Origin: a virus
Lineage: Duplodnaviria; Heunggongvirae; Uroviricota; Caudoviricetes
DNA: 40,808 bases
Direction: 5' to 3' (one strand)
Virus record (IMG/VR): IMGVR_UViG_2778261545_000004
The stretch's first letter is position 1. The number at the start of each line of letters is the position of its first letter. Below are positions 3,526 through 39,282 of this stretch, in pieces. Below the pieces are notes generated by a model, which saw nothing but the letters and a program-made list of their open reading frames with translations, did not search any database and had not been told where the DNA came from. The position numbers and the translations under genes were made by a program.

Positions 3526-4350
3526 TCAGGCGGTGAAAGTACCAATAAAGGTTTCTACTTTGCTGTCTTTGAATTTCTCAACAAGCAGATCGCGAAATTC
3601 GTTAGCCATTTCTTCCTGCACCGCCTCCAGCTGAATAATGCGCAGAACAAGTACAGGACGATCGCCAGTGATAATGCTGAGGCGTAATTTAAAAGAACGT
3701 TCTTTCAGACCTTCAAACGGAACGCATTTAAATTCAAATGCCACTGGCATAATGTCTTTGGTCTTCGCTTCGACAGACTCCATCAGGGAGCGTTTGCCGC
3801 TGAAGTCATTGTCTTCAAAATCAGCAGTCTGGTTCGCTTCAATTGTGATTTTACGGATCGCCGCAGCCGCTTTGGTTGCCTGAATGGCGTCACCATTAGC
3901 ATCAAAGCCCACAAGGTTGTCGGCCCAGTCTTCAATCCATTCTGCCAGTGATTTCTGGGAGTTACGCTCGCCGTGAACAGACAACAGAGCAGAGAACGGT
4001 GCTGTCTTTTTCAGTTTGAGAGTGGCGGTGTTATCTGCGTGGCCTGGTTCATCAATAGTACCCAGGTTAAGCACACTGACGGCACGCATATTATCAGCAT
4101 CGATAAAGCAGCGGGTGCCTTCATCTGCAAGATCTTTAGAATAACGGGTAAAGTCATCAATGCTGGCAGTGGAAAGCGCACCACGGAAACGGAAGCGATT
4201 TAAATTAAATTTTTCCAGGTCATGAATGCGGAAATTCTCAGGCAATGCCACAGCATCGGCACCAATCTTACTGATAATTTCATTAACACCCTGAGCAGAA
4301 ATAAGGGCATGGATTTGATTAATTGCGGTTGCGTCTAAGTTCTGAGACAT
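3526..4350 (-). CDS. YfdQ-family prophage protein (function unknown)
   Basis: 274 aa; same length and gene order as the yfdP-yfdQ-yfdR block of E. coli prophage remnants (from memory, not searched). Confidence 0.6.
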
Positions 4351-4415
4351 AATAAGTCCTCACTATATAAAGATATTCAGTGATGAGATAAATAATCAGT
4401 TAATTAAAAACGATA

Positions 4416-4778
4416 TTAACGACCTGCTGCGCGGAGTTTTCCGTCAGGTTCACCGGCAAGAGTCAGTAACTGTCCCTGGTCTTCCTGCAGAATAGTCAGG
4501 CGACCACCGCGATTGACATACATCGGCGTTTCGGTGGTGTCTTCTTCGGAAATTTTCCCGCGGTTAGTCGGGCGAACATATGAGAGTTTGTGTTTGATTT
4601 TCACACGGTTCTCATCAAATGGTTCGATTTCCAGGTTGAGTGAGACCTTACCTTTGGTTTTCGTGTTCATCACACCGGAAGCGACTTCACTGAGAACTGC
4701 GCCGATTTTGGTTTCAAATACGCCGCCGTCCAGCTCCCCGATAAATGCCTGCACATCAGTACTGCGTTCGCTAGCCAT
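4416..4778 (-). CDS. YfdP-like small prophage protein
   Basis: 120 aa from ATG 4776-4778 with GAGGAG 7 nt upstream; the ORF-track extension to 5096 is rejected. Confidence 0.5.
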   Translation of the reverse strand: MASERSTDVQAFIGELDGGVFETKIGAVLSEVASGVMNTKTKGKVSLNLEIEPFDENRVKIKHKLSYVRPTNRGKISEEDTTETPMYVNRGGRLTILQEDQGQLLTLAGEPDGKLRAAGR

Positions 4779-4789
4779 TTTGCTGCTCC

Positions 4790-5110
4790 TCATCATATCG
4801 ACCCTGCAAGGCCGATTAGTTTCTCCACAAAACAGAGAAGAACACCTGCGGTGGCAGCCGCCCGGATGGATTGGGTTATGAGCCCGTCGTCCGGTGATGC
4901 TCTTCTCTGTTTTGTAAAAAGGACGGTACCAGCCGGAAGCAAGGGTACAAACTGGTACCGCCAGGACTACACACAGCATAAAGTTGTGGTGCCGGGTGCC
5001 TCCCGGTGCCTGGCGAAGGTTGCACACCAGGCGGGTGGGTATCCACAGAAGGTCGACTGTCAGCCTCAACCTTAACCCGCGTGCGCTGAGCCGCATTCAC
5101 CACAACGCTA
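4790..5110. other. GC-rich non-coding block with nested perfect inverted repeats (candidate structured RNA or DNA element)
   Basis: 14-bp perfect inverted repeat CAAAACAGAGAAGA / TCTTCTCTGTTTTG (4827-4840 and 4901-4914), 9-bp inverted repeat CGGTACCAG / CTGGTACCG (4924-4932 and 4952-4960); ORFs open in several frames but none protein-like. Confidence 0.3.
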
Positions 5111-5179
5111 AGGATTCTCTCTGGTTGAAAATACTTAGCTGTTATGTGCCTGCTTTTAGCCACATCAGGCGAGGTGGAC

Positions 5180-5231
5180 CTGGTTATTCCCCAACAACAA
5201 GGATTCGGTTAATCTGGTTATCCCCAACAAC
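5180..5231 (+). repeat. Direct repeat pair CTGGTTAT(T)CCCCAACAAC upstream of the 5247 moron
   Basis: Copies at 5180-5198 and 5214-5231, 34 bp apart, 15-65 nt upstream of the ATG. Confidence 0.6.
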
Positions 5232-5246
5232 GCAAAAGGAAAAGAA

Positions 5247-5681
5247 ATGTCCGGTAATATCTATACGCTGTACAAATCCCACTGTGAAAATGTTGGAAAG
5301 TATCGGGGCATTGAAATCAGTGGGGTAGTGTCATCAGTCGAAATAAGCAAAGTTGAATCAAGGGCAACATTACTTACTCTTTTGGACCTTGTCTTACATG
5401 AGCACCGGAAGAAATTCGGCACTCCCTATAATCAGTTGAATGGGAAAAAGGCTCTGGTTCACCTTATTCTGATGAAGCATCACTGGATGCCAAAACAGAT
5501 TAATGAGATGAAATTTGATGAACTTCTTCTTTCAATTCAGGATGAACTCACACTTGATAAAATAAGCGTAACCGCCCAGAAATTTTTAGATTATCGAGAC
5601 TGGAGATCACAAATTCATCACTTTGATGATTTTGACGAAAATGAATGGGATCCTAATTTGTCTGCACAATATCTAAAGTAA
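5247..5681 (+). CDS. Hypothetical protein, 144 aa (opposite-strand moron in the early-left region)
   Basis: AAGGAAAAG RBS, AT-rich, transcribed against the leftward early operon; no family recognised. Confidence 0.55.
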   Translation: MSGNIYTLYKSHCENVGKYRGIEISGVVSSVEISKVESRATLLTLLDLVLHEHRKKFGTPYNQLNGKKALVHLILMKHHWMPKQINEMKFDELLLSIQDELTLDKISVTAQKFLDYRDWRSQIHHFDDFDENEWDPNLSAQYLK

Positions 5682-5859
5682 CATCCTGTGATAAAACCGT
5701 GATTTCCTGATCCAGTTTTTTTAAGGAGTCTATTGTTTCCTGTCGATAAGACAGCACTTCACGAAGCTGGTTTATAGCTGCCAGCTTCTTTGTCATCCAC
5801 TCATAAATTTCCTCATCTGTGTAGCCAGGCGCGACGATTTTGGGTTCTGTTTTGTGCAT
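5653..5859 (-). CDS. Small hypothetical protein, first gene of the leftward early operon
   Basis: 68 aa from the ATG preceded by AGGAG with 7-nt spacer; convergent 29-nt overlap with the 5247-5681 gene. Confidence 0.4.
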   Translation of the reverse strand: MHKTEPKIVAPGYTDEEIYEWMTKKLAAINQLREVLSYRQETIDSLKKLDQEITVLSQDVTLDIVQTN

Positions 5860-5918
5860 TTCACATCTCCTCAAGTTATCAGTTACTTGTTGATGGGGAC
5901 CAGATTGTTAAAGAGCTA

Positions 5919-5945
5919 AGCGTCCTGTAGGGCGCTTTTTTGTTG
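5919..5945 (+). terminator. Rho-independent terminator-like hairpin with T6 tract
   Basis: AGCGTCC-TGTA-GGGCGCT followed by TTTTTTGTTG; more stable on plus strand (G-U pair). Confidence 0.4.
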
Positions 5946-6107
5946 CTAACGAATCATCCTGGACTTCATATGCCCCAGGCGGCTACTTCGTGGGCGTCCT
6001 GCCTGTTCGTTTTTGACATTTACTGACTGCTTACGACACATGCACCGTGTTGCAACCAGATTTTGTTGTAATCCTGTAGTTGGTCTGGAACAAAAGATAA
6101 AATTAAA

Positions 6108-6143
6108 TTGCGAGATATGCAAGTGATATTTGCGAGATATGCA
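6108..6143. promoter_or_regulatory. OL-like operators: two copies of TTGCGAGATATGCAA
   Basis: Identical 15-mers at 6108-6122 and 6129-6143, centres 21 bp apart, between the repressor 3' end and the leftward genes. Confidence 0.45.
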
Positions 6144-6152
6144 AATTTATAG

Positions 6153-6178
6153 GTAATAAAAAGCCACCTTTCGGTGGC
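6153..6178 (-). terminator. Rho-independent terminator downstream of the repressor gene
   Basis: On minus strand GCCACC-GAAA-GGTGGC followed by UUUUUAUU, immediately after the stop at 6199. Confidence 0.6.
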
Positions 6179-6198
6179 CGATGGATGGGATATTGAGG

Positions 6199-6891
6199 TT
6201 AATTATGTCTCTTAAGGGTTTGCGACTGACTGATTAAGACCTTTCCAAAGACCATGAATCGGTGTTCGTTTTCGCTAGTAATTCCCCATTCACGGTAAAT
6301 CTGGTTATCAGAAATCACCAGCAGTTTGTCAGGAATCATTTGAAGTCTTTTAACGTATATTTTGTCATCAAAACCAAAGACATATATACCATCACCATCA
6401 AACTGATTGATGCTGACATCAACGAAGATGAGATCTCCTGGCTCAATGGTTGGACACATACTGTCCCCACGAACGTTGATAACTTTGATGTGATTGGCTG
6501 GTCGTCCGCCGAACATTGATACAGCATTATCAGTTCTGTATTCGATGGCATGAATCACATCAATGACATCACCGCCCTGGATAAGGCCATTTCCCGCACT
6601 GGCACTGATATCCAGCATTTCAATACGGAACACATCCTTCACCTGCGCAACATCCTCATTATTACTGTTTTTATATACAGTATTACTTTTGTGGGCAGAG
6701 GTAAAGAGATCAGCAATATCAACACCTAAGCTCTTGGCAATATTACTCAGTGTTTGTTCGGTAAATTGTTTTTGCTTACCCGTTTCTAAGCGCGAGATGT
6801 TCGCCGCATCTACTCCTATCGCTTCAGCGAGATCGGCGATTTTCATGTTCTTCGCTTGGCGAAGTTGTCTGACTCGGTTTCCTATGTTCAT
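6199..6891 (-). CDS. CI-like prophage repressor (HTH domain plus S24 LexA-like autopeptidase domain)
   Basis: 230 aa; N-terminal HTH, C-terminal peptidase region with the conserved Ser (GDSMCP) and Lys (VKRL); divergent from a Cro-like gene. Confidence 0.9.
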   Translation of the reverse strand: MNIGNRVRQLRQAKNMKIADLAEAIGVDAANISRLETGKQKQFTEQTLSNIAKSLGVDIADLFTSAHKSNTVYKNSNNEDVAQVKDVFRIEMLDISASAGNGLIQGGDVIDVIHAIEYRTDNAVSMFGGRPANHIKVINVRGDSMCPTIEPGDLIFVDVSINQFDGDGIYVFGFDDKIYVKRLQMIPDKLLVISDNQIYREWGITSENEHRFMVFGKVLISQSQTLKRHN

Positions 6892-13150: not shown

Positions 13151-13197
13151 CCCCGTAAACTTTATGTTTACGGGGGAAGGTTATTTCTTTTTTTTAT
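13151..13197. terminator. Bidirectional hairpin terminator between Q and the convergent TIR-like gene
   Basis: CCCCGTAAAC-TTTAT-GTTTACGGGG with T-rich tracts on both sides. Confidence 0.6.
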
Positions 13198-13996
13198 TAC
13201 TTTCAGATAATCGTCGGTTTAATGTGTATTTTATTTGGTTCCTAATCATTTTTTCAGGAATGTCATATTTGTCTAAGAATGATATTATTTCATCCTCGTC
13301 AAGCAATCCATTCTTTATAATTTCATCTATCTGTTTTTGTAGATACCAAACATCCTTCTGTTCTACAGGAGTTAAATTCATATGGCTATTTATGGAGTTG
13401 ATAGTAGCATCACGTTCAAGAACTCTAATCCTTTGATTTAATGAACGAGTGTTTTGTAATATTTCAGATAAAAGATCTTGTTCAGTACGTGGTTTTACTT
13501 CTTCAGTTGGAGGGTATTGATCTAAAGCTCGTTTAAAATTGTTTTCAAATTGCTCCCAGTATGTATTAAAAACTTGCTTTAGAATACGGTCATCTAAAGA
13601 TTTATCGACAAGACAATTGTTTATTGTCCTTACTAATTCCCAAACACTCTCTTTATTTGGCGTTGTGTGATTGAATTGAGCAAGTGGATCTTTTAAATCT
13701 TCTGGTTTTAAGTCAATCAAGAATGTACAAACTTTATTTGTTGAAAGTCCTTTTGCTAGTGCTCCTGTTTCAAACAAAATCCATGGTTTATTTTTATTTT
13801 CTTGTGTCAAACATACAATTCCGACAGATACATCTTTTAATTTATCATTAATTTCAGAGAACCATATAGCGCCACGATCAATATCTCTGGTTGAAATCCA
13901 TGGCTGCGAAGCTTGGATAACACACTTCAGCCAGTCGCTAATAAGTTCTGCAACAGCTTGACTTCTTTGCCCAGACCAACTTATGAACACTTTCAT
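13181..13996 (-). CDS. TIR-like domain protein with C-terminal helical domain (moron)
   Basis: 271 aa from MKVFISWSG (TGGAG 6 nt upstream); motifs DIDRG, VGIVCLT, PWILFETG match TIR consensus by eye; AT-rich; reverse orientation between Q and lysis genes. Confidence 0.55.
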   Translation of the reverse strand: MKVFISWSGQRSQAVAELISDWLKCVIQASQPWISTRDIDRGAIWFSEINDKLKDVSVGIVCLTQENKNKPWILFETGALAKGLSTNKVCTFLIDLKPEDLKDPLAQFNHTTPNKESVWELVRTINNCLVDKSLDDRILKQVFNTYWEQFENNFKRALDQYPPTEEVKPRTEQDLLSEILQNTRSLNQRIRVLERDATINSINSHMNLTPVEQKDVWYLQKQIDEIIKNGLLDEDEIISFLDKYDIPEKMIRNQIKYTLNRRLSESNKKKK

Positions 13997-14120
13997 TATG
14001 TACTCCATGTAATCACTCAAAAGGAACTGAAATTTACATTAAAAATTAAATAAAATCACTCACGCGGTCCGCAGAAACCATTGTAATCTGTTATGAGTGG
14101 TTACTTCGCCACACAACTTA

Positions 14121-31935: not shown

Positions 31936-32360
31936 TGGAACTGTGGCTGACGGTGAACGGTAAACGCACCTGCGCCAGCGCACCGCTGGATCCGCTGACC
32001 CGCGCCGTGGTGATTTCCCTGTTTACCTGGCGGCGGGCGGAGCCTGATGACAACGCCGACGTCCCGATGGGATGGTGGGGGGATACCTGGCCTGCGGTAC
32101 AGAATGACCGTTACGGCTCCCGACTGTGGCTGCTTCAGCGCAGCAAACTGACCAATCAGCTGGTGCAGACGGTAAGGGGGTATATCCGCGAATGCCTGCA
32201 ATGGATGATTGATGATGGCGTGGTGTCCCGTATTGATCTGGATATCCGCCGCACCGGGATTAATGAACTGGGTAACAGTATCACTCTCTGGCGTCGTGAC
32301 GGACCGGTAATGATTTCTTTTGATGATCTGTGGAGTGCGATAACGCATGGCGGACAGTGA
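31932..32360 (+). CDS. Baseplate protein (Mu gp46 / W-like)
   Basis: 142 aa, gene order. Confidence 0.7.
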   Translation: MMELWLTVNGKRTCASAPLDPLTRAVVISLFTWRRAEPDDNADVPMGWWGDTWPAVQNDRYGSRLWLLQRSKLTNQLVQTVRGYIRECLQWMIDDGVVSRIDLDIRRTGINELGNSITLWRRDGPVMISFDDLWSAITHGGQ

Positions 32361-33405
32361 ATTTCAGCGCCCGACGCTGGCAGAAAATATCAGTATGCTC
32401 CGTAACGATTTATTCGCCAGGCTGGACGTCAGCGACACGCTCCGGCGCATGGATGAAGACGTGCGGGCAAAGGTGTATGCGGCGGCGCTGCATACGGTTT
32501 ACGGTTACATCGATTATCTGGCAATGAACATGCTGCCTGACCTGTGCGATGAGTCCTGGCTGGCGCGACATGCTGCGATGAAACGGTGTCCGCGCAAGGG
32601 GGCCACGGCTGCCAGCGGGTATATGCGCTGGGAAGGTGTCAGCGATGGCCTGAAGGTGACTGCCGGGAGCGTGATTCAGCGCGATGACCTGGTTCAGTAC
32701 ACGGCAACTGCTGATGCAACCAGCTCCGGTGGTGTCCTGCGCGTGCCGATCACTTGCTCAAGTGCAGGCGCGGTCGGTAACGCTGACGACGGTACGGCAT
32801 TAATCCTGGTCACGCCGGTGAATGGTCTGCCGTCTTCCGGTGTTGCAGATACTCTGACTGGCGGATTCGATACTGAAGATCTGGAAACGTGGCGCGCCCG
32901 CGTCATTGAGCGGTATTACTGGACGCCGCAGGGCGGGGCTGACGGGGACTATGTCGTCTGGGCTAAAGAAGTGCCCGGCATTACCCGCGCATGGACATAC
33001 CGTCACTGGATGGGAACGGGAACTGTCGGTGTGATGATTGCCAGCAGTGACCTGATTAATCCCATTCCGGAAGAATCAACGGAAACGGCGGCAAGACAAC
33101 ATATCGGGCCACTGGCCCCGGTGGCAGGCTCTGATTTGTATGTGTTCAGGCCGGTGGCACATACGGTGGATTTTCATATCCGCGTGACGCCGGACACACC
33201 GGAAATACGGGCTGCCATCACCGCGGAGTTGCGTTCGTTCCTGCTGCGTGATGGTTATCCGCAGGGAGAACTGAAGGTATCGCGTATCAGTGAGGCGATT
33301 TCCGGTGCGAACGGGGAATACAGCCATCAGTTGCTTACACCGGCAGACAATATCTCCATTGCAAAAAATGAACTGGCGGTACTGGGGACGATTTCATGGA
33401 CGTGA
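32347..33405 (+). CDS. Baseplate J-like protein (Mu gp47)
   Basis: 352 aa, gene order. Confidence 0.8.
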
Positions 33406-33980
33406 CAAACGATGATTACATCCGTCTGTTGTCGGCACTGTTGCCCCCCGGTCCGGCGTGGTCAGCCAGCGATCCGGCGATTGCCGGTGCGGCACCGTCA
33501 TTAACCCGCGTTCATCAGCGTGCGGATGCCCTGATGCGGGAGCTGGATCCGCGCACCACCACTGAACTGATAAACCGCTGGGAGAGTCTGTGCGGTCTGC
33601 CGGATGAATGTATTCCCGCAGGGACACAGACCCTTCGCCAGCGTCAGCAACGGCTGGATGCGAAGGTTAACCTGGCGGGCGGCATCAACGAGAATTTTTA
33701 TCTTGCACAGCTTGCTGCCCTGGGCAGACCAGACGCTACCATCACGCGATACGACAAAAGCACGTTCACCTGCTCATCGGCCTGTACTGACGCGGTGAAT
33801 GCGCCGGAATGGCGGTATTACTGGCAGGTCAACATGCCAGCCGCCACAAACACCACCTGGATGACATGTGGCGATCCCTGTGATTCCGCGCTGCGTATCT
33901 GGGGCGACACCGTTGTCGAATGTGTGCTTAACAAACTCTGCCCGTCGCATACCTACGTAATTTTTAAATATCCGGAGTAA
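33396..33980 (+). CDS. Tail protein (Mu gp48 / P2 I-like)
   Basis: 194 aa preceding the tail fibre gene. Confidence 0.7.
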
Positions 33981-33983
33981 TCC

Positions 33984-34811
33984 ATGCATCGTATAGACAC
34001 GAAAACCGCGCAGAAGGATAAGTTCGGCGCGGGTAAGAACGGTTTTACCCGTGGTAACCCCCAGACTGGCACACCTGCCACCGATCTGGATGATGACTAC
34101 TTTGATATGTTGCAGGAAGAACTCTGCAGCGTGGTGGAGGCATCCGGTGCCAGCCTGGAGAAGGGGCGAAACGACCAGTTGCTTACCGCGCTTCGTGCTC
34201 TGCTGTTAAGCCGCAAGAATCCGTTTGGTGATATCAAATCGGATGGCACGGTGAAAACGGCTCTCGAAAACCTTGGTTTGGGAGAAGGCTCAGCATTACC
34301 CGTTGGTGTGCCTGTTCCGTGGCCTTCAGCCACTCCGCCAACAGGCTGGCTGAAATGCAATGGTGCGGCTTTTTCTGCTGAAGAATACCCGGAACTGACA
34401 AAGGCTTACCCGACCAATAAATTGCCTGATTTACGCGGTGAATTTATTCGTGGCTGGGATGATGGACGTGGAGTGGATGCGGGGCGAGCCTTGCTAAGTC
34501 TTCAGAATGACTCTTTTGAAGCTCACAGGCATGAGTCCTTTTTTTACGCGGGTATTTCACGCAATGAAACACCATTAAAAAATCTTCCAAGTTCAGACGA
34601 GATGCTGACTTTAAGTTCCACAACTAATGCCTTGTCCCCGGACAGTATTGATGCCACCAATTCGTTAATTGGTAATGATGATTACAACTGTCTGATTGAA
34701 GGAAATAAAAATAACAAACGAACGGCAACGGGGTTGAGTACCAGTATTGTCGGTGCAGCAGAGACACGCCCACGTAATATTTCATTTAATTACATTGTGA
34801 GGGCTGCATGA
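33984..34811 (+). CDS. Tail fibre protein (constant N-terminus fused to currently expressed variable C-terminus)
   Basis: 275 aa; conserved N-terminus [21 protein letters not shown]; recombination site lies at codon ~93. Confidence 0.8.
34261..34286. promoter_or_regulatory. DNA invertase crossover site (hix/gix-like), left
   Basis: CTCTCGAAAACC-TT-GGTTTGGGAGAA; 20 of 26 positions match the right site in inverted orientation. Confidence 0.5.
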
Positions 34812-35413
34812 TGTATAACGCCATCTTAAATAATAAATTTATTGCCACAAAGGCAGGAGAGATTACCGTTTATAACTATGACAGTGAGACACGGGAGTAT
34901 ATTTCTGCATCAACTGAATATCTTGCTGTGGGTGTCGGTATCCCTGCATATTCCTGTTTAGATGCTCCTGACACACATAAGGTTGGTTATGCAATCTGCC
35001 GTTCGGCAGATTTAAACTCATGGGAATATGTGCCAGACCATCGCGGTGAAGTTGTCTATAACACCGAAACGGGAGAATCAAAAGAAATCACAGCTCCGGG
35101 TGATTACCCTGAAAATACAACCACTATCGTCCCGTTAACGCCATACGATAAATGGGATGGTGAGAAATGGGTGACAGATACTGAGGCACAGCATAGTGCC
35201 GCAGTAGACGCGGCAGAAGCACAGCGCCAGTCGCTGATTGATGCTGCAATGGCTTCCATCAGTCTGATTCAACTGAAATTACAGGCCGGGCGGAAGCTGA
35301 CGCAGGCAGAAACAACCCGATTTAACGCCGTGCTGGATTACATTGACGCGGTGACGGTAACAGATACCAGCACCACGCCGGATGTCATCTGGCCTGAACT
35401 GCCGGAGGCGTAG
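34808..35413 (+). CDS. Tail fibre assembly chaperone (Tfa), currently expressed orientation
   Basis: 201 aa, conserved C-terminus ([12 protein letters not shown]); ATGA overlap with fibre stop. Confidence 0.8.
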
Positions 35414-35813
35414 GCCATTCAATATCGGGTGCTGTTGAAGTATCAACACGCATCAGCAGCACACGGTATTTCTTCCATTCGGTGAGAGTTGAAGTTTCTT
35501 CATCAGTTGCGATATCAGCATCAACAGCATCCTGACGCCAGGATATTTCACTGTCAGCTTTTTCCCGTAATTGGGATTTTTTAACTTCAGCAATAGCTAT
35601 TAATTCCTTTTTGGTCGGCTGAGGAATATCTATCAGTGCTGGTTTTCCATTCAGTGTTCCAATCTGTTTTCCTGGTGGAATATCCGTAAATAACTTTTTA
35701 TGTTCTTCCTCACTGACTATTACACCATCATCAGGCCACAGACCTGATGCCTCAAATTTTTCTTTCTCCGATATGGGGAAAAAGCCATTTGCTTTAGCGC
35801 TCCATACGTACAT
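35385..35813 (-). CDS. Alternative tail fibre assembly chaperone (inverted cassette)
   Basis: 142 aa, conserved C-terminus ([10 protein letters not shown]); convergent 29-nt overlap with tfa. Confidence 0.75.
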
Positions 35814-35814
35814 A

Positions 35815-36109
35815 TCAATACCCCACCGCTATAATGTCCACATTAAATCCCCCGGGACCTGCCTGCCAGATGCTGGCCCCTGTTAATGATTTTGTTTGAT
35901 GAACAACCGCCACATTTGCTGGCGATTGTGTTTCAGTTGTTACAGTACCGATATCATTCCAGTTAATTGAGATGGAATAGTTCGTTGTTGTAAACGACCG
36001 GGGGAAAGTTATGTGTCTTACATTGGTGCCGACAGGAAATCCAAGATAAACACGCTGAATTATCATTCCTCCAGGTAACATAACCCAGTTAGCACCTTCT
36101 CCAAAACCA
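35815..36109 (-). other. Promoterless alternative tail-fibre C-terminal cassette (expressed only after inversion)
   Basis: Reverse-strand coding segment beginning at the right crossover site; inversion would fuse it in frame to the fibre N-terminus. Confidence 0.6.
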
Positions 36110-36122
36110 ACGTTTATGAAAA
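36097..36122. promoter_or_regulatory. DNA invertase crossover site (hix/gix-like), right
   Basis: TTCTCCAAAACC-AA-CGTTTATGAAAA resembles the Hin hixL sequence as recalled (TTCTTGAAAACCAAGGTTTTTGATAA). Confidence 0.55.
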
Positions 36123-36176
36123 TGCAGAAATAACGAGCAAATGGCATCATTCCTGCTTTTGTCAGAGGGATCCACT

Positions 36177-36368
36177 ATGCTTATTGGCTATGTACGCGTA
36201 TCAATAAATGACCAGAACACAGATCTACAACGTAATGCGTTGAACTGTGCAGGATGCGAGCTGATTTTTGAAGACAAGATAAGCGGTACAAAGTCCGAGA
36301 GCCTAGGGCTGACAGTGCTGTTCTTGATGCAAATTAAAGGATTTAATAGTGAGTTGCGGCCTTACTAA
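36177..36368 (+). pseudogene. pin: Truncated serine DNA invertase (Pin/Gin/Hin family), N-terminal ~41 codons only
   Basis: MLIGYVRVSINDQNTDLQRNALNCAGCELIFEDKISGTKSE matches the invertase N-terminus including the catalytic Ser region, then diverges and stops; full-length is ~185 aa. Confidence 0.7.
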
Positions 36369-36401
36369 TGTAAGGCCGCTATAATCATTTTATTAATTGC
36401 A

Positions 36402-38291
36402 TTAATCGTATTTTGGCCATACTTTCAATGCAATTTCCCCCAACTTTTTACCTCGCTCCAGTATTTCACTCTCATCCCATTTATCCTTAAGTATAAGTGG
36501 TATGTTCAGTCGTAGATTGGTGTGGACGATGAGAGCATCACGTTTTTTCAGAAATACAGCATTCTGAACGGAACGGTTTACGCTAAGGTTAAGCAAAGTT
36601 AGATTTCCCAACGTAGCTATCGCTTGTTGCCGTTTCCTTACCAGTAGCTGTTCAGGGGTAAGATCGGTTCCAGACAGAACAATTTGGTTCATTACCGTAG
36701 CATCTGAATTTGTCACCATATGACCATTTTCGAGAGGCCAACAGGAATACCAACTTTGAGGCATAAGATGATCGATATCGAGATTAGAAAGATTTGGAAC
36801 ATCAGGCTTTTCTGTCTTTACTTGGCGACAAAGTTCTCTTTCAAGTTCCGTTAACATTGAGCGCATTTTCGGTGCGTCGAGCCTGCCAGGATAAAGTGGA
36901 GCATTGATGCAAGCGTTGAGAAATTCTGAGTCCCCAGGCCAACGTGAGGCTTCGCCATTTAAGCTATTGAGGATATTACGTAACTCAATACTGGAAATTT
37001 CCGTTTTAGACAAGTGTCGCAATACATTCATAAATACATTGTTGTAATTCTTTGGCGTCAGGCCACATACGGATCTTCGTACTACGTAGGAGACAAGATC
37101 ATTATACATGGCTGCTTTCTCATCATCGGCGATGTTAGCTATCGAAATGAACAAAGCAAGCGGATAGAGTGTCGTCACATCATAGGCTGCGATGCGATGT
37201 CCAAAGTGTGAGATGGGGGTTGTGCCAAAACCACCAACCAATTCTTTATATTGTGATGCATATTGTTTGAGGCGCTTTACTTGCAGATCTGCTCGTTGTG
37301 AAGGCAAGTCCTTACTTACATAATCACGATACTCATTGTAAAGGCGAGACAGATCAATTTCACGCTGCCTTTCTGATTGCAATGTCGCATGTACAAGCCA
37401 CTCCATGCGTGGTTTATTAATACGTCCACGGCGTTGCTTTTCCGACCAGTATTTATCTTCAAAGATCTTCCACTCATTTTCATATAATTCAATAGTATTA
37501 ATATTTTCATGCTCAGCGCACATAAAGATATAGTTGCGAATAAGATCCGTTGCATGAAGTTCCGCTCCTCGCCCATTTAATGTTTCAAAAATTATTTGGG
37601 CATCATCTTCAGCTTCGAGAAATATGCTTACCAGTTTCAGATCCGTCAAGACAGCCTCAATTAGTGCTACAGCATTTTCTTGTGGTGAGCGGTTTTCTAT
37701 TTTAATCCATTTTATAAAGGCTTCAGTAAAAAACCATAATGCCTCTAGTGACGGCGGGTGGTTGAAATGTTTACGTAACGTACCATGTTGCGTGAAGCTA
37801 TCAGAAAATACATTACGGAGATCGTCAATATTATCAACATTAAGACTTTGAATAAAATGAGTTTGATCTCGAAAAGTTGGCCACAGTTTGAAGCATTCTA
37901 CCTTTTTATTTCTCATCGTTGCTTCGTTTGTATTTTTCAAGCAAGTCAATACTAACCCTTCCAGTTCAGAAAGGCCTGTAGCACGCAATGATAATCGAAT
38001 GGATGCCAGAATATATTGAAGAGTGGTTAAACGTTGCTGGCCGTCAATAATATGTATGGTATCTACACCTAACAAGCTGTTTTTGAGTTGAGGTTCCAGC
38101 ACCACCGCGCCGAGGAAATGAGGGGTTGGTTTTGTTCCCGAAAGTCGGCTCTGTGCTTTTTCGAAGATATCCTCCAGCAAAGCTGACCATTGGTTTCGTT
38201 GCGTCCATACGTAGGCACGTTGATAGAATGGAACACGATATTGTCGTTGATTTTGGAAAATTTGCTGGATGGTTAGCGTTTCGGATTTCAT
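36402..38291 (-). CDS. GmrSD-family type IV (modification-dependent) restriction endonuclease, fused DUF262-DUF1524
   Basis: 629 aa; N-terminal VPFYQRAYVW and IIDGQQRLTTL (DUF262), C-terminal DIDHLMPQSW ... GNLTLLNLSVNRS (His-Me finger); AT-rich. Confidence 0.8.
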   Translation of the reverse strand: MKSETLTIQQIFQNQRQYRVPFYQRAYVWTQRNQWSALLEDIFEKAQSRLSGTKPTPHFLGAVVLEPQLKNSLLGVDTIHIIDGQQRLTTLQYILASIRLSLRATGLSELEGLVLTCLKNTNEATMRNKKVECFKLWPTFRDQTHFIQSLNVDNIDDLRNVFSDSFTQHGTLRKHFNHPPSLEALWFFTEAFIKWIKIENRSPQENAVALIEAVLTDLKLVSIFLEAEDDAQIIFETLNGRGAELHATDLIRNYIFMCAEHENINTIELYENEWKIFEDKYWSEKQRRGRINKPRMEWLVHATLQSERQREIDLSRLYNEYRDYVSKDLPSQRADLQVKRLKQYASQYKELVGGFGTTPISHFGHRIAAYDVTTLYPLALFISIANIADDEKAAMYNDLVSYVVRRSVCGLTPKNYNNVFMNVLRHLSKTEISSIELRNILNSLNGEASRWPGDSEFLNACINAPLYPGRLDAPKMRSMLTELERELCRQVKTEKPDVPNLSNLDIDHLMPQSWYSCWPLENGHMVTNSDATVMNQIVLSGTDLTPEQLLVRKRQQAIATLGNLTLLNLSVNRSVQNAVFLKKRDALIVHTNLRLNIPLILKDKWDESEILERGKKLGEIALKVWPKYD

Positions 38292-38547
38292 TGTTTACCT
38301 ATAAATAACATTAAGTGACATTCTACAAGAGTAAGAAATTCATCTGAGTCAGAACAATCATTTTTATGTAGTTATGATACAGTGTATTTGTTACTGGTGA
38401 AGTAAAAATAAGAAACCCCGCTTTTGAATGCTGACGCGCTACGGTTTCATTGGATATTTTTTGTCTCTCCTCCATCCCGTTGGTGTTCTGTTTAGACTGA
38501 TAACTTGCTGTTTTAATTGATATTAGTTTCTTGCGCCGTCCAATCAT

Positions 38548-38579
38548 GGTTGGTGGGTTGGTGGGTTGGTGGGTTGGTG
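38548..38579. repeat. Tandem octamer repeat (GGTTGGTG) x4
   Basis: Read directly; G-tract spacing compatible with a G-quadruplex; about 260 bp upstream of the GmrSD start. Confidence 0.8.
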
Positions 38580-38646
38580 GGAGTTAAATCCACATTGGTA
38601 TGAATAACATAGAATATGAATTAGTGTTTCAGAATTGCTTCAGCCA

Positions 38647-38976
38647 TCACTTTTTAATACGTTCAATTTGAATGTTTATTTCCGAAACAATTTTTTCAGG
38701 TTTCAGTCCCTCGTTAGATTGCACAAAATCTCTAATTTGCATCATTCGATGTGCACAAATTTGTAATTCGCTATAAACACTTAGCTCGTCAGATTCATTT
38801 TGAGATTGTTCACCTGTTTAAAATTCTACATAAGTATGTGGCGGATTGTGATAAACACGAGAAATCGGGGTTGGCCACCATTCCTCACCGGTCACTACGT
38901 CCGCATCGAATAGTACAGTTTTGTCAATTTCCATTAATTTCTGGATAAGAACAGAAGTTTTCAAGCGAACCTCCAT
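38647..38976 (-). pseudogene. ORF interrupted by one in-frame TAA (possible pseudogene)
   Basis: 52 codons, TAA at 38818-38820, then 56 more protein-like codons in the same frame; no clear RBS. Confidence 0.2.
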
Positions 38977-39120
38977 TTTGCCATAAAGTGGTTATCAAAA
39001 CGCTACGTAAACTATACAAAATCAGCGAGTTATGGTGAAGGTAAAAAAACAAGTTTAGATGTTCGTTAAGTATAAAATTGTTTTAATTCAATTGGATATA
39101 ATAATTTTCTAAATCTAATG

Positions 39121-39282
39121 TTACGCCATATGGGCTGGACTGAAGCCGCAGACCTGATTGTTAAAGGTATGGAAGGCGCAATCAACGCCAAGACTGTAAC
39201 CTATGACTTCGAACGTCTGATGGAAGGCGCTAAACTGCTGAAATGTTCAGAATTTGGTGATGCGATCATCAAGAACATGTAA
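39121..39282 (+). pseudogene. icd: Displaced 3' fragment of isocitrate dehydrogenase gene (icd), 53 codons
   Basis: Reads [53 protein letters not shown], matching the Icd C-terminus as recalled; in-frame TAA immediately upstream. Confidence 0.75.

Follow-up and report, generated by a model that had tools for sequence, protein, structure and literature searches.

An e14-type invertible tail-fibre segment beside a truncated pin invertase gene

Introduction

Does an invertible tail-fibre segment become fixed once the invertase gene beside it has been cut short? The question is raised by a locus in a 40.8-kb stretch of viral DNA (hereafter the window, meaning the whole stretch that was analysed), in which a sequence-only reading had described two 26-bp inverted sites with TT/AA centres, two fibre-tip/tfa cassettes laid out as in the Mu G segment and a truncated invertase next to them, and had called the arrangement apparently locked. 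The system itself is already known: it is the same as Pin/pix of the K-12 prophage e14, whose P segment, PinE invertase and pix sites have been described (Plasterk & van de Putte 1985, as cited in PMC4272514; Kirigo et al. 2025, PMC12529663), and it is of the same class as Gin/gix of Mu. The locus lies in an e14-like myovirus prophage of full length, inserted at icd. We argue that it is a P segment of the e14 type with a dead resident pin, and that it is probably a competent substrate flipped occasionally in trans.

Results

Crossover sites and fibre cassettes

Direct comparison of the two crossover sites (Table 1) in inverted orientation showed matches at 20/26 positions, and since AA is the reverse complement of TT, both sites carry the same core. 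With their imperfect 12-bp half-sites (CTCTCGAAAACC, TTCTCCCAAACC, TTCTCCAAAACC and TTTTCATAAACG) and their shared 2-bp core, the two inverted 26-bp elements have the form of Hin/Gin/Cin/Pin sites. Both contain the published e14 inversion repeats (PMC12529663), pixL including the repeat TTGGTTTGGGAGAAGG, and both are in good agreement with the actual gix sites of Mu and with the Sandmeier consensus given in PMC4134206. Additionally, 67.5 bp separate the centre of pixR from the invertase start codon downstream of it, a spacing equal to that between gixR and gin in Mu. An exact-seed repeat search of the window did not list the pair because its longest exact seed is shorter than 9 bp.

Table 1 Features of the locus and its surroundings, with positions in the window.
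Feature	Position	Strand	Details
Current tail-fibre gene, 275 aa	33984..34811	+	Pfam Collar PF07484, 6.5e-15
Left crossover site (pixL)	34261..34286		CTCTCGAAAACC-TT-GGTTTGGGAGAA, central TT 34273-34274; identical to K-12 pixL
Invertible P-type segment	34275..36108		1834 bp between the two central dinucleotides
Chaperone of current cassette, 201 aa, TfaE-like	34808..35413	+	Pfam Caudo_TAP, 8.7e-30
Alternative tail-fibre assembly chaperone, 142 aa	35385..35813	-	Pfam Caudo_TAP, 1e-33
Alternative fibre tip (gp53-like)	35815..36150	-	Pfam Gp53-like_C, 6.7e-6; cassette proper 35815-36108
Right crossover site (pixR)	36097..36122		TTCTCCAAAACC-AA-CGTTTATGAAAA, central AA 36109-36110; 25/26 to K-12 pixR
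Truncated pin invertase	36177..36368	+	pin homology ~36177-36312, then unrelated sequence to stop 36368
Presumed recombinational enhancer	36198..36261	+	Two G-N13-C candidate Fis cores in pin stump
GmrSD-type type IV restriction gene, 629 aa	36402..38291	-	Pfam GmrSD_N + GmrSD_C
icd' fragment, right attachment end of e14-like prophage	39118..39282	+	Aligns to K-12 icdC

A 20/26 inverted repeat is by itself only moderately unusual: generic repeats of this kind gave eight overlapping matches in positions 33001-38000, where 20 shuffles gave a mean of 0.45, and 2 of the 20 shuffles yielded some such repeat. The latter might suggest that the inverted repeat arose by chance and that the region is no switch; however, the site-specific content of pixL and pixR is far beyond chance. 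The pattern TNTCNNAAACSNNSGTTTNNGANA has exactly two matches in the 40.8-kb window, which are pixL and pixR, with 0 expected, and a site matrix trained on 39 distinct invertase-proximal sites from other genera scores pixL at 33.3 bits (minus strand) and pixR at 30.6 bits, the training median being 32.7. With the same matrix, the next-best place in the window reaches 9.4 bits and the 99.99th percentile stands at 3.9. This specificity, the identity to the K-12 pix sites and natural inversions that end at pixL and pixR (see below) refute a chance repeat, to which we assign a negligible probability. The sites and their centres had been correctly read, and of the alignments proposed with that reading, the one to pix places them with the pix sites of K-12, gix being comparable.

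The current fibre gene, annotated as ‘phage tail protein’ in LST200A and SOI121, consists of a constant N-terminal part (33984-34274) and an exchangeable C-terminal cassette (34275-34811), and its product is 69% identical to K-12 StfP2, the fibre of the inverted state in K-12. The 201-aa chaperone is 88.5% identical to K-12 TfaE, and the 142-aa chaperone on the opposite strand 33% identical to K-12 TfaP. Pfam domains in both cassettes, together with the Mu G annotation, bear out the Mu-G-like layout. The alternative tip presently reads as a 111-aa open reading frame (ORF) that starts with the ATG at 36150 and has its first 14 codons outside the segment, an architecture of the StfE2 type; leader and junction share 80% identity with K-12 StfE2 across 20 aa, and StfE2 is reported to show activity once it is expressed (PMC12529663). 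The earlier description of this tip as promoterless is reasonable by default, in that a simple promoter scan found no sigma-70-like promoter for the ORF, which may still have one, while the start codon outside the segment gives the tip a reading frame in its present state. In-silico exchange at the core produced the in-frame fusion that had been predicted (...ALENLG-FGEGANWV...), with a product of 194 aa, and the corresponding fused 585-bp gene is annotated at the fibre position in MEI148-20EC and 20KM0223N. Judged by sequence, the locus is thus of the Mu S/U-S'/U' type, with a constant N-terminus and two in-frame C-terminal cassettes that each have their own chaperone.

The truncated pin gene and its surroundings

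The stump keeps nucleotides (nt) 1 to ~136 of pin, amounting to ~45 of 184 codons. Compared to K-12 pinE, 117 of its first 120 nt are identical, and homology is gone after ~nt 136; Pfam Resolvase aligns with residues 3-47 only, out of a 145-position profile, Pfam finds no helix-turn-helix domain in the stump, and PGAP labels the equivalent feature ‘incomplete; missing C-terminus’. A switch of this class would be expected to have, next to the segment, a small serine invertase with both a catalytic and a C-terminal helix-turn-helix domain; such a gene is lacking here, in agreement with the truncation noted in the sequence-only reading. Because the resident gene is a remnant, the switch is not autonomous and an invertase would be required in trans, as had also been claimed; no invertase gene is visible in the 40.8-kb window, either in the ORF list or by Pfam.

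The GmrSD gene downstream is recognised by PADLOC as mREase_IV, with 1516 bits over its full length, and no K-12 homology was found between 36313 and 39107; a module bearing this gene has taken the place of the 3' part of pin and of mcrA. The prophage looks complete and aligns colinearly with SOI121 at 99.05%, and the equivalent of its icd' fragment is annotated as partial isocitrate dehydrogenase in a relative genome. An e14-type prophage at icd, pix sites and the gene order ymfQ-stf-tfa...pin together identify the locus as an e14 P segment. The pin/GmrSD junction is common to 286 of 5426 complete E. coli genomes. Prophages inserted elsewhere in the chromosome, with different fibres, carry this junction too, indicating that the module moves by recombination.

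A part of pin that survives in the stump may serve as the recombinational enhancer. Two candidate Fis cores, at 36198-36212 (pin nt 22-36) and 36247-36261 (nt 71-85), are both conserved in K-12 pinE and Mu gin, the proximal one with a C-to-T change at its centre. The position of the presumed enhancer was derived from family-wide synonymous conservation together with published geometry (PMC3798978). Across 73 Pin-family genes, synonymous variation is 0.23 in codons 8-12, 0.46 in codons 24-29 and 0.86 in codons 30-184, and the two suppressed patches coincide with the two candidate cores. The centre of the proximal core lies ~95 bp from that of pixR, and the geometry of the stretch fits that published for the Hin enhancer, a 65-bp element with Fis sites at both ends and a distance of ~100 bp to hix (PMC3798978). 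Binding of Fis to the patches kept in the stump is putative. Since both patches are kept in the stump, the locus appears to be cis-competent, with a putative enhancer, and dependent on an invertase in trans. Retention of the enhancer was also considered as a sign of selection, and this idea was dropped, because a random breakpoint in the 555-nt gene would keep nt 1-85 in ~85% of cases.

Inversion among related prophages

The segment aligns in reverse in two of the loci compared with the window (L002 and L003), with both flanks colinear. When the locus was inverted in silico, it matched MEI148-20EC at 99.9% and 20KM0223N at 99.5% identity, with an identical truncation junction. Only 2 base differences separate the inverted window from MEI148-20EC across 33500-36600, and ~8 in a 6.5-kb block, just to the left of which genomes of the same orientation show 16-18 differences per 500 bp. 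20KM0223N contains exactly the predicted hybrid sites, in which the outer halves stay and a G/T marker in the inner half moves, limiting the crossover to 7 bp, TTGGTTT, around the core. An independent second pair, made up of 19AR0646 and GPEC874, carries different cassettes and a different stump allele; its two members share the same stump, are 100% and 99.98% identical in the flanks and differ only by inversion, the segment being reversed. Both orientations, with exchange at the core, are thus found between genomes. As near-identical inverted relatives carry the same stump, genome comparison establishes that the segment has flipped at least twice in relatives after the truncation, and the earlier notion of a locked segment does not hold beyond the cis sense.

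Among junction-bearing genomes, the gp53-like cassette lies beside the stump in 12 and the collar cassette in 68; these counts come from 611-nt junction queries and are an unclean orientation ratio for one cassette pair, the cassettes being shuffled among lineages. The first junction queries were only 18% truncation-specific, and the counts at 80% coverage were discarded. Strict comparisons of orientation were confined to full-length matches, comprising five genomes in the orientation of the window and two in the opposite one, plus two partial, and to the second pair.

Candidate sources of a trans-acting enzyme are widespread: of 5426 complete E. coli genomes, 2751 have pinQ/pinR-type genes and 1148 the 3' part of pinE. 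For the K-12 P segment, inversion by PinQ and PinR is documented (PMC12529663), and prophage Phi4 of EC958, with a severely truncated invertase, shows both orientations in PacBio reads (PMC4134206). 19AR0646 and GPEC874 each have one pin-5'-like place in the genome, which hints weakly that the flipping enzyme is no close relative of pinE, or was present only transiently. Which enzyme acts in trans, and how this particular strain behaves, we infer from these comparisons.

Discussion

Our data are best explained by the following mechanism. A serine DNA invertase would cut both 26-bp sites at the identical 2-bp core (TT) and exchange the halves, thereby changing which fibre C-terminus and cognate chaperone are linked to the constant N-terminal part of the fibre and to the late operon. 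The GmrSD type IV restriction module replaced pin after ~nt 136, along with the downstream mcrA region, leaving as surviving cis parts both crossover sites and the 5' coding stretch with its presumed two-Fis-site enhancer. With the resident invertase dead and the cis parts kept, the segment cannot switch by itself and would nevertheless be a competent substrate, flipped occasionally by a compatible trans invertase whose source could be a plasmid, a further prophage or an element of the P1 or Mu type.

A reading that differs from this one in rate and not in kind is that the segment is effectively frozen in this strain, no compatible invertase being present or expressed, so that the collar-type fibre is expressed, the gp53-like cassette is silent or reads as the 111-aa ORF, and the flips in relatives were rare accidents. 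In its favour, the P segment of K-12 is locked in a single orientation once pinE is deleted, although pinQ and pinR are still present in the chromosome (PMC12529663), and native trans activity can therefore be negligible; by our reading, which is not that of the authors of PMC12529663, the deletion would also remove the presumed enhancer. The window contains no invertase gene, and LST200A, OZ547164 and OZ546951, which have the same orientation, show one pin-5'-like place per genome, a weak hint in the same direction. However, the segment flipped recently, and at least twice, in truncated backgrounds, with a block divergence of ~0.1% or less, all cis elements are intact (the enhancer as judged by sequence), and pinQ/pinR-type genes are found in roughly half of the complete E. 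coli genomes, so that we consider a frozen segment plausible and rather unlikely.

The identical junction at different chromosomal sites and beside different fibres shows that the module is exchanged between phages, and could also mean that no inversion followed the truncation, the stump/GmrSD module having been imported by homologous recombination into prophages of either orientation. Such an import would need crossovers at both 26-bp sites, twice independently, yet both pairs are near-identical without a break through flanks and segment, and orientation alone changes, exactly at the sites. Moreover, the hybrid sites of 20KM0223N are those expected from core exchange, and the comparison with MEI148-20EC shows no step in SNP density at pixR or at the stump, making import very unlikely. 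RecA-dependent homologous recombination at the short inverted repeats, with no site-specific enzyme involved, is likewise hard to sustain: the sites do share 16-21 bp of perfect inverted identity, inside which the marker limits the crossover to 7 bp, but 16-21 bp is below the minimal length for efficient RecA recombination. Two independent recent events and a frequent orientation polymorphism (12 vs 68 genomes) are also hard to reconcile with this route, which we regard as highly improbable. The trans-flipped P segment accordingly stays the probable explanation.

For annotation, this means that a truncated invertase beside an invertible tail-fibre segment should not be equated with a fixed fibre allele; isolates that are identical elsewhere can have different fibre genes, and an assembler may return one state or the other. 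The synonymous-site footprint offers a simple criterion of whether an invertase remnant leaves its segment cis-competent. The results leave the understanding of the P-segment system unchanged and add one more case of invertible segments serviced by foreign invertases, now with population counts. A further and doubtful idea is that the stump is not mere debris, and that an orphan switch, made up of the two sites and the presumed enhancer, is kept functional while its state is set by the invertases of other mobile elements, whether resident or incoming. Were this true, the host range of the prophage would be coupled to the rest of the mobilome. The present orientation would also couple to it the production of the StfE2-like 111-aa gp53-domain protein, which could block phage adsorption; adsorption block of other phages has been reported for K-12. 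The GmrSD gene that destroyed pin would then adjoin a second, inversion-controlled defence function.

Compared to K-12 e14, the prophage shares the chromosomal site icd, the flanks (ymfQ upstream, the icd' fragment and iraM downstream), an identical left and a 25/26 right site, a nearly identical constant part of the fibre, the collar cassette (69%) and TfaE (88.5%), and an equal spacing between site and invertase start. It differs in that pin is cut after ~nt 136, with a GmrSD gene in place of mcrA, in that the second cassette is another allele, with no DNA match to K-12 and a chaperone at 33%, and in being full length (~39 kb), whereas K-12 holds a 15-kb remnant.

EC958 Phi4 resembles the locus in that its invertible tail-fibre segment, which has 26-bp sites, lies next to a severely truncated invertase (Forde et al. 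2014, PMC4134206), inversion still being observed there and attributed to a trans invertase (PMC4134206). Phi4 is, however, another prophage; its sites are gix-like (TTATCGAATACC TC GGTTTACAGGAA), its segment measures 3106 bp, and the evidence there is read heterogeneity within a culture, in contrast to the comparison between genomes made here. Flipping of a segment by the invertase of another prophage, with family members interchangeable on their sites, is likewise known from PinQ/PinR on e14 and from Fin of Fels-2, which acts on the Salmonella H segment (as cited in PMC12529663 and in PMC4272514); in those cases the resident PinE or Hin is intact, whereas the present locus would depend wholly on foreign enzymes.

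The Mu G segment has in common with the locus a constant fibre N-terminus, mirrored alternative C-termini and chaperones, an invertase gene directly downstream, and 26-bp sites with a 2-bp core and a site centre 67.5 bp from the start codon. In Mu, by contrast, the core is TC/GA instead of TT/AA, one gix half-site is TTCCTGTAAACC and not of the TTCTCC type, gin is intact and the fibre is longer. Mu Gin and K-12 PinE share their first 22 residues, apart from the GTG start codon.

The e14-type switch and its crossover sites

The locus is the known e14/Pin tail-fibre inversion switch, in an allele whose invertase has been destroyed by a GmrSD restriction-gene module. Strain SOI121 harbours a prophage of ~39 kb that looks complete, and the window is colinear with it at 99.05%. 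Genes for integrase, excisionase, repressor, replication, lysis, terminase, portal, capsid, sheath, tube, tape measure and baseplate are present in that prophage, which terminates in an icd' fragment beside iraM, the e14 attachment site. Escherichia coli K-12 e14 shows the same order, ymfQ-stf-tfa / tfa-stf-pinE-mcrA-icdC, except that the 3' part of pinE and mcrA are absent from the window. The K-12 pixL site is identical to the left crossover site (L) and pixR differs by one base from the right one (R), and both published end-point repeats of the e14 inversion, TTGGTTTGGGAGAAGG and CCTTCTCCCAAACCAA (PMC12529663), fall within L and R. Phage Mu is of like design, with S/U and U'/S' cassettes in mirror image, gin downstream and the same 67.5 bp from site centre to start codon; its sites, taken from the actual Mu sequence, are TTATCCAAAACC-TC-GGTTTACAGGAA (gixL) and TTCCTGTAAACC-GA-GGTTTTGGATAA (gixR).

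Features of the switch locus in the window
Feature	Coordinates	Strand	Sequence or domain evidence
Site L	34261-34286		CTCTCGAAAACC-TT-GGTTTGGGAGAA; central dinucleotide TT
Current fibre gene, 275 aa, 3' part inside segment		plus	Pfam Collar
Chaperone, 201 aa, 3' of collar fibre		plus	Pfam Caudo_TAP
Alternative chaperone, 142 aa		minus	Pfam Caudo_TAP
Alternative fibre tip	35815-36150 (as ORF)	minus	Pfam Gp53-like_C
Site R	36097-36122		TTCTCCAAAACC-AA-CGTTTATGAAAA; central dinucleotide AA
Invertase stump	36177-36368		Pfam Resolvase domain, residues 3-47 only
GmrSD-type type IV restriction gene, 629 aa, convergent	36402-38291	minus	Pfam GmrSD_N and GmrSD_C; PADLOC mREase_IV, 1516 bits, full length

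The sequence-only reading had proposed two inverted 26-bp sites with central TT and AA, and direct comparison bears this out, with 20 of 26 positions identical in inverted orientation. A generic inverted repeat of that quality is only moderately unusual: the stretch 33001-38000 contains 8 overlapping windows, where 20 shuffles averaged 0.45 and two of them also gave 20/26 windows, and a general repeat search did not list the pair because it contains no 9-bp exact seed. That L and R pair by chance is, however, excluded, since the half-site pattern common to both, itself partly fitted to them, occurs at just these two places in the 40.8-kb window and in none of 100 shuffles. Because of that fitting, we built an independent reference matrix. 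Querying species-representative genomes with K-12 PinE gave 80 loci from many enterobacterial genera, in most of which an ...AAACC-NN-(C/G)GTTT... site precedes the invertase gene by 58-89 bp; the matrix comprises 39 distinct invertase-proximal sites, copies ≥95% identical to pinE being excluded. On this matrix, part of whose core is fixed by the site-collecting regex while its flanks are independent, L scores 33.3 bits (minus strand) and R 30.6 bits (plus strand), against a training median of 32.7 and 9.4 bits for the next-highest place in the window. Together with the match to pixL and pixR, these scores mark the sites as Hin-family type.

Between the sites, ORFs and Pfam domains agree with the arrangement originally described, a fibre C-terminus and tfa on the plus strand and an alternative tfa and fibre C-terminus on the minus strand. 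The predicted in-frame fusion was also reproduced: when the halves are swapped in silico at the central dinucleotide, the 97 constant codons read on into the second cassette (...ALENLG-FGEGANWV..., 194 aa), and the corresponding 585-bp gene is annotated in the records of two genomes, MEI148-20EC and 20KM0223N. The window is in the K-12 'inverted' state, its expressed fibre resembling StfP2 (69%), the K-12 fibre of that state, with TfaE (88.5%) for the chaperone. The 'silent' cassette is a complete 111-aa ORF starting at an ATG outside the segment; it resembles K-12 StfE2 in having 14 leader codons outside the segment followed by a gp53-like domain, but this domain is a different allele. When expressed, K-12 StfE2 is reported to block adsorption of phage T2 (PMC12529663). 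A simple scan found no promoter-like site for the 111-aa ORF.

An isolated phage of 43.5 kb, Escherichia phage vB_EcoM-689R6 (ON470584.1), encodes an invertase 96% identical to PinE (positions 28-579), so that e14-type free viruses with an intact switch exist. Elsewhere in the window, between the Q antiterminator and the holin, lies a 279-aa TIR-domain protein (13181-14020, minus strand; PADLOC TIR-TM, 1.7e-57), which is probably a defence moron.

Truncation of the invertase

The adjacent invertase is truncated, as had been claimed. The ORF downstream of the segment begins MLIGYVRVS... and matches K-12 pinE at 117 of 120 nt at its 5' end, homology is lost after ~nt 136, and in related genomes the NCBI pipeline annotates its counterpart as 'recombinase family protein, incomplete, missing C-terminus'. 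No K-12 homology was found in window 36313-39107, and the GmrSD gene region stands where K-12 e14 has the 3' part of pinE and mcrA. The mcrA gene likewise encodes type IV restriction, and modification-dependent restriction genes appear to be exchanged at this end of the prophage. Of 5426 complete E. coli genomes, 286 carry the junction (36130-36560), with identities from 100% down to ~97%, indicating that the truncation is old and widespread. The same junction occurs in prophages away from icd, in SF-166, W21 and str. 3426 (locus positions ~4080-6200), beside DinI, ParA and GIY-YIG genes and in one case a 3-kb fibre, and the stump/GmrSD module thus moves between phages. In str. 3426 the locus has degenerated: an IS3 sits within the segment, and pixR reads AATTG in place of AAACC. 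A non-coding tandem repeat of GGTTGGTG (~4 copies, 38548-38581) upstream of the GmrSD gene interrupts the alignment to two relatives with the segment reversed, pointing to length polymorphism.

Inversion in close relatives

The 2.5-kb locus is found whole in the window orientation in five genomes, and MEI148-20EC (99.9%) and 20KM0223N (99.5%) contain the entire in-silico inverted form, truncation junction included; in both, the flanks are colinear and 34268-36115 is reversed. A single base, G or T at position 20, distinguishes the two inner half-sites of the window. In 20KM0223N it has travelled along with the segment, the outer half-sites staying in place, so that the exchange falls inside TTGGTTT around the core. 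Between the inverted window and MEI148-20EC there are 2 differences in 33500-36600 and ~8 over 32001-38581, whereas LST200A and SOI121, which share the window's orientation, differ from it at 16-18 positions per 500 bp within 32501-33500; the flip is thus much younger than the truncation. 19AR0646 and GPEC874 form a second pair, with a different stump allele and a different combination of cassettes (collar and glycine-rich); identity is 100% and 99.98% in the flanks, and the 1.86-kb segment is reversed at 99.89%. Junction queries demanding both cassette and truncation found the gp53-like cassette beside the stump in 12 genomes and the collar cassette in 68, not a pure orientation ratio because cassettes are shuffled between lineages.

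With two pairs sharing a truncation and differing by a reversed segment, the earlier description 'apparently locked' does not stand at population level. Judged by this comparison of relatives' sequences, the segment is not locked on an evolutionary scale; a better description is that it needs an invertase supplied in trans and that its close relatives record two flips or more. In principle, the stump/GmrSD module could instead have been imported into prophages of either orientation with no flip after truncation, in keeping with the same junction in prophages at other loci; this leaves unexplained the unbroken near-identity across both sites in the two pairs. Inversion by RecA recombination is improbable, since two recent events would hardly be expected from a repeat of 16-21 bp.

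Enzyme in trans and the retained enhancer

We infer that an invertase from elsewhere would flip the segment in trans. The PinQ and PinR invertases, which belong to other prophages of K-12, have been shown to act on the e14 segment and invert it (PMC12529663); the same paper cites action of Fels-2 Fin on the Salmonella H segment. An EC958 prophage with a severely truncated invertase showed both orientations within one culture (PMC4134206). The Pin switch itself and inversion in trans beside a truncated invertase are already in the literature. Candidate enzymes are common: of 5426 genomes, 2751 have genes of the pinQ/pinR type and 1148 have the part of pinE missing from the stump. Against easy action in trans, 19AR0646 and GPEC874 show no second close pin 5' region in the genome, and a K-12 pinE deletion was locked though chromosomal pinQ and pinR were present (PMC12529663). 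In our own interpretation, this locking may be due to loss of the presumed enhancer along with pinE.

In hin, gin and cin, the enhancer is embedded in the 5' part of the invertase coding sequence. Invertases of this family require two sites and an enhancer in cis; that of the Hin system is 65 bp long, carries Fis sites at both ends and lies ~100 bp from one of the crossover sites (PMC3798978). We aligned 73 distinct Pin-family genes by codon, Mu gin among them, and placed the presumed enhancer from the normalised synonymous entropy. Entropy was 0.23 at codons 8-12 and 0.46 at codons 24-29, against 0.92 at codons 13-23 and 0.86 at codons 30-184, and codons 25-27 each used a single codon in 88-95% of sequences. 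Each low-entropy patch coincides with a G-N13-C core, at pin nt 22-36 and nt 71-85, which the window shares with K-12 pinE and Mu gin; the core centres are 49 bp apart, and the proximal one is ~95 bp from the pixR centre. This suppressed synonymous variation is a footprint, read from sequence alone, of the presumed two-Fis-site enhancer, and could be used to judge invertase remnants elsewhere. Both patches lie well within the retained 136 nt, so that the stump, with its predicted Fis cores and both sites, would leave the segment still invertible; a random breakpoint would keep the enhancer ~85% of the time. Other sampled stumps have frameshifting indels only beyond ~nt 90 and an invariant distal core, in a sample too small to test selection. 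The window stump carries a C-to-T change at the proximal-core centre, which also converts Thr10, adjoining the catalytic Ser9, to Ile.

At two loci with a pin 95% identical to pinE, in E. coli ECMA0423 and S. flexneri SFBU1023, a 17-nt poly-C tract rather than a crossover site lies ~40-60 nt upstream of the invertase start, which could reflect a rearranged locus or a slippage-prone tract.
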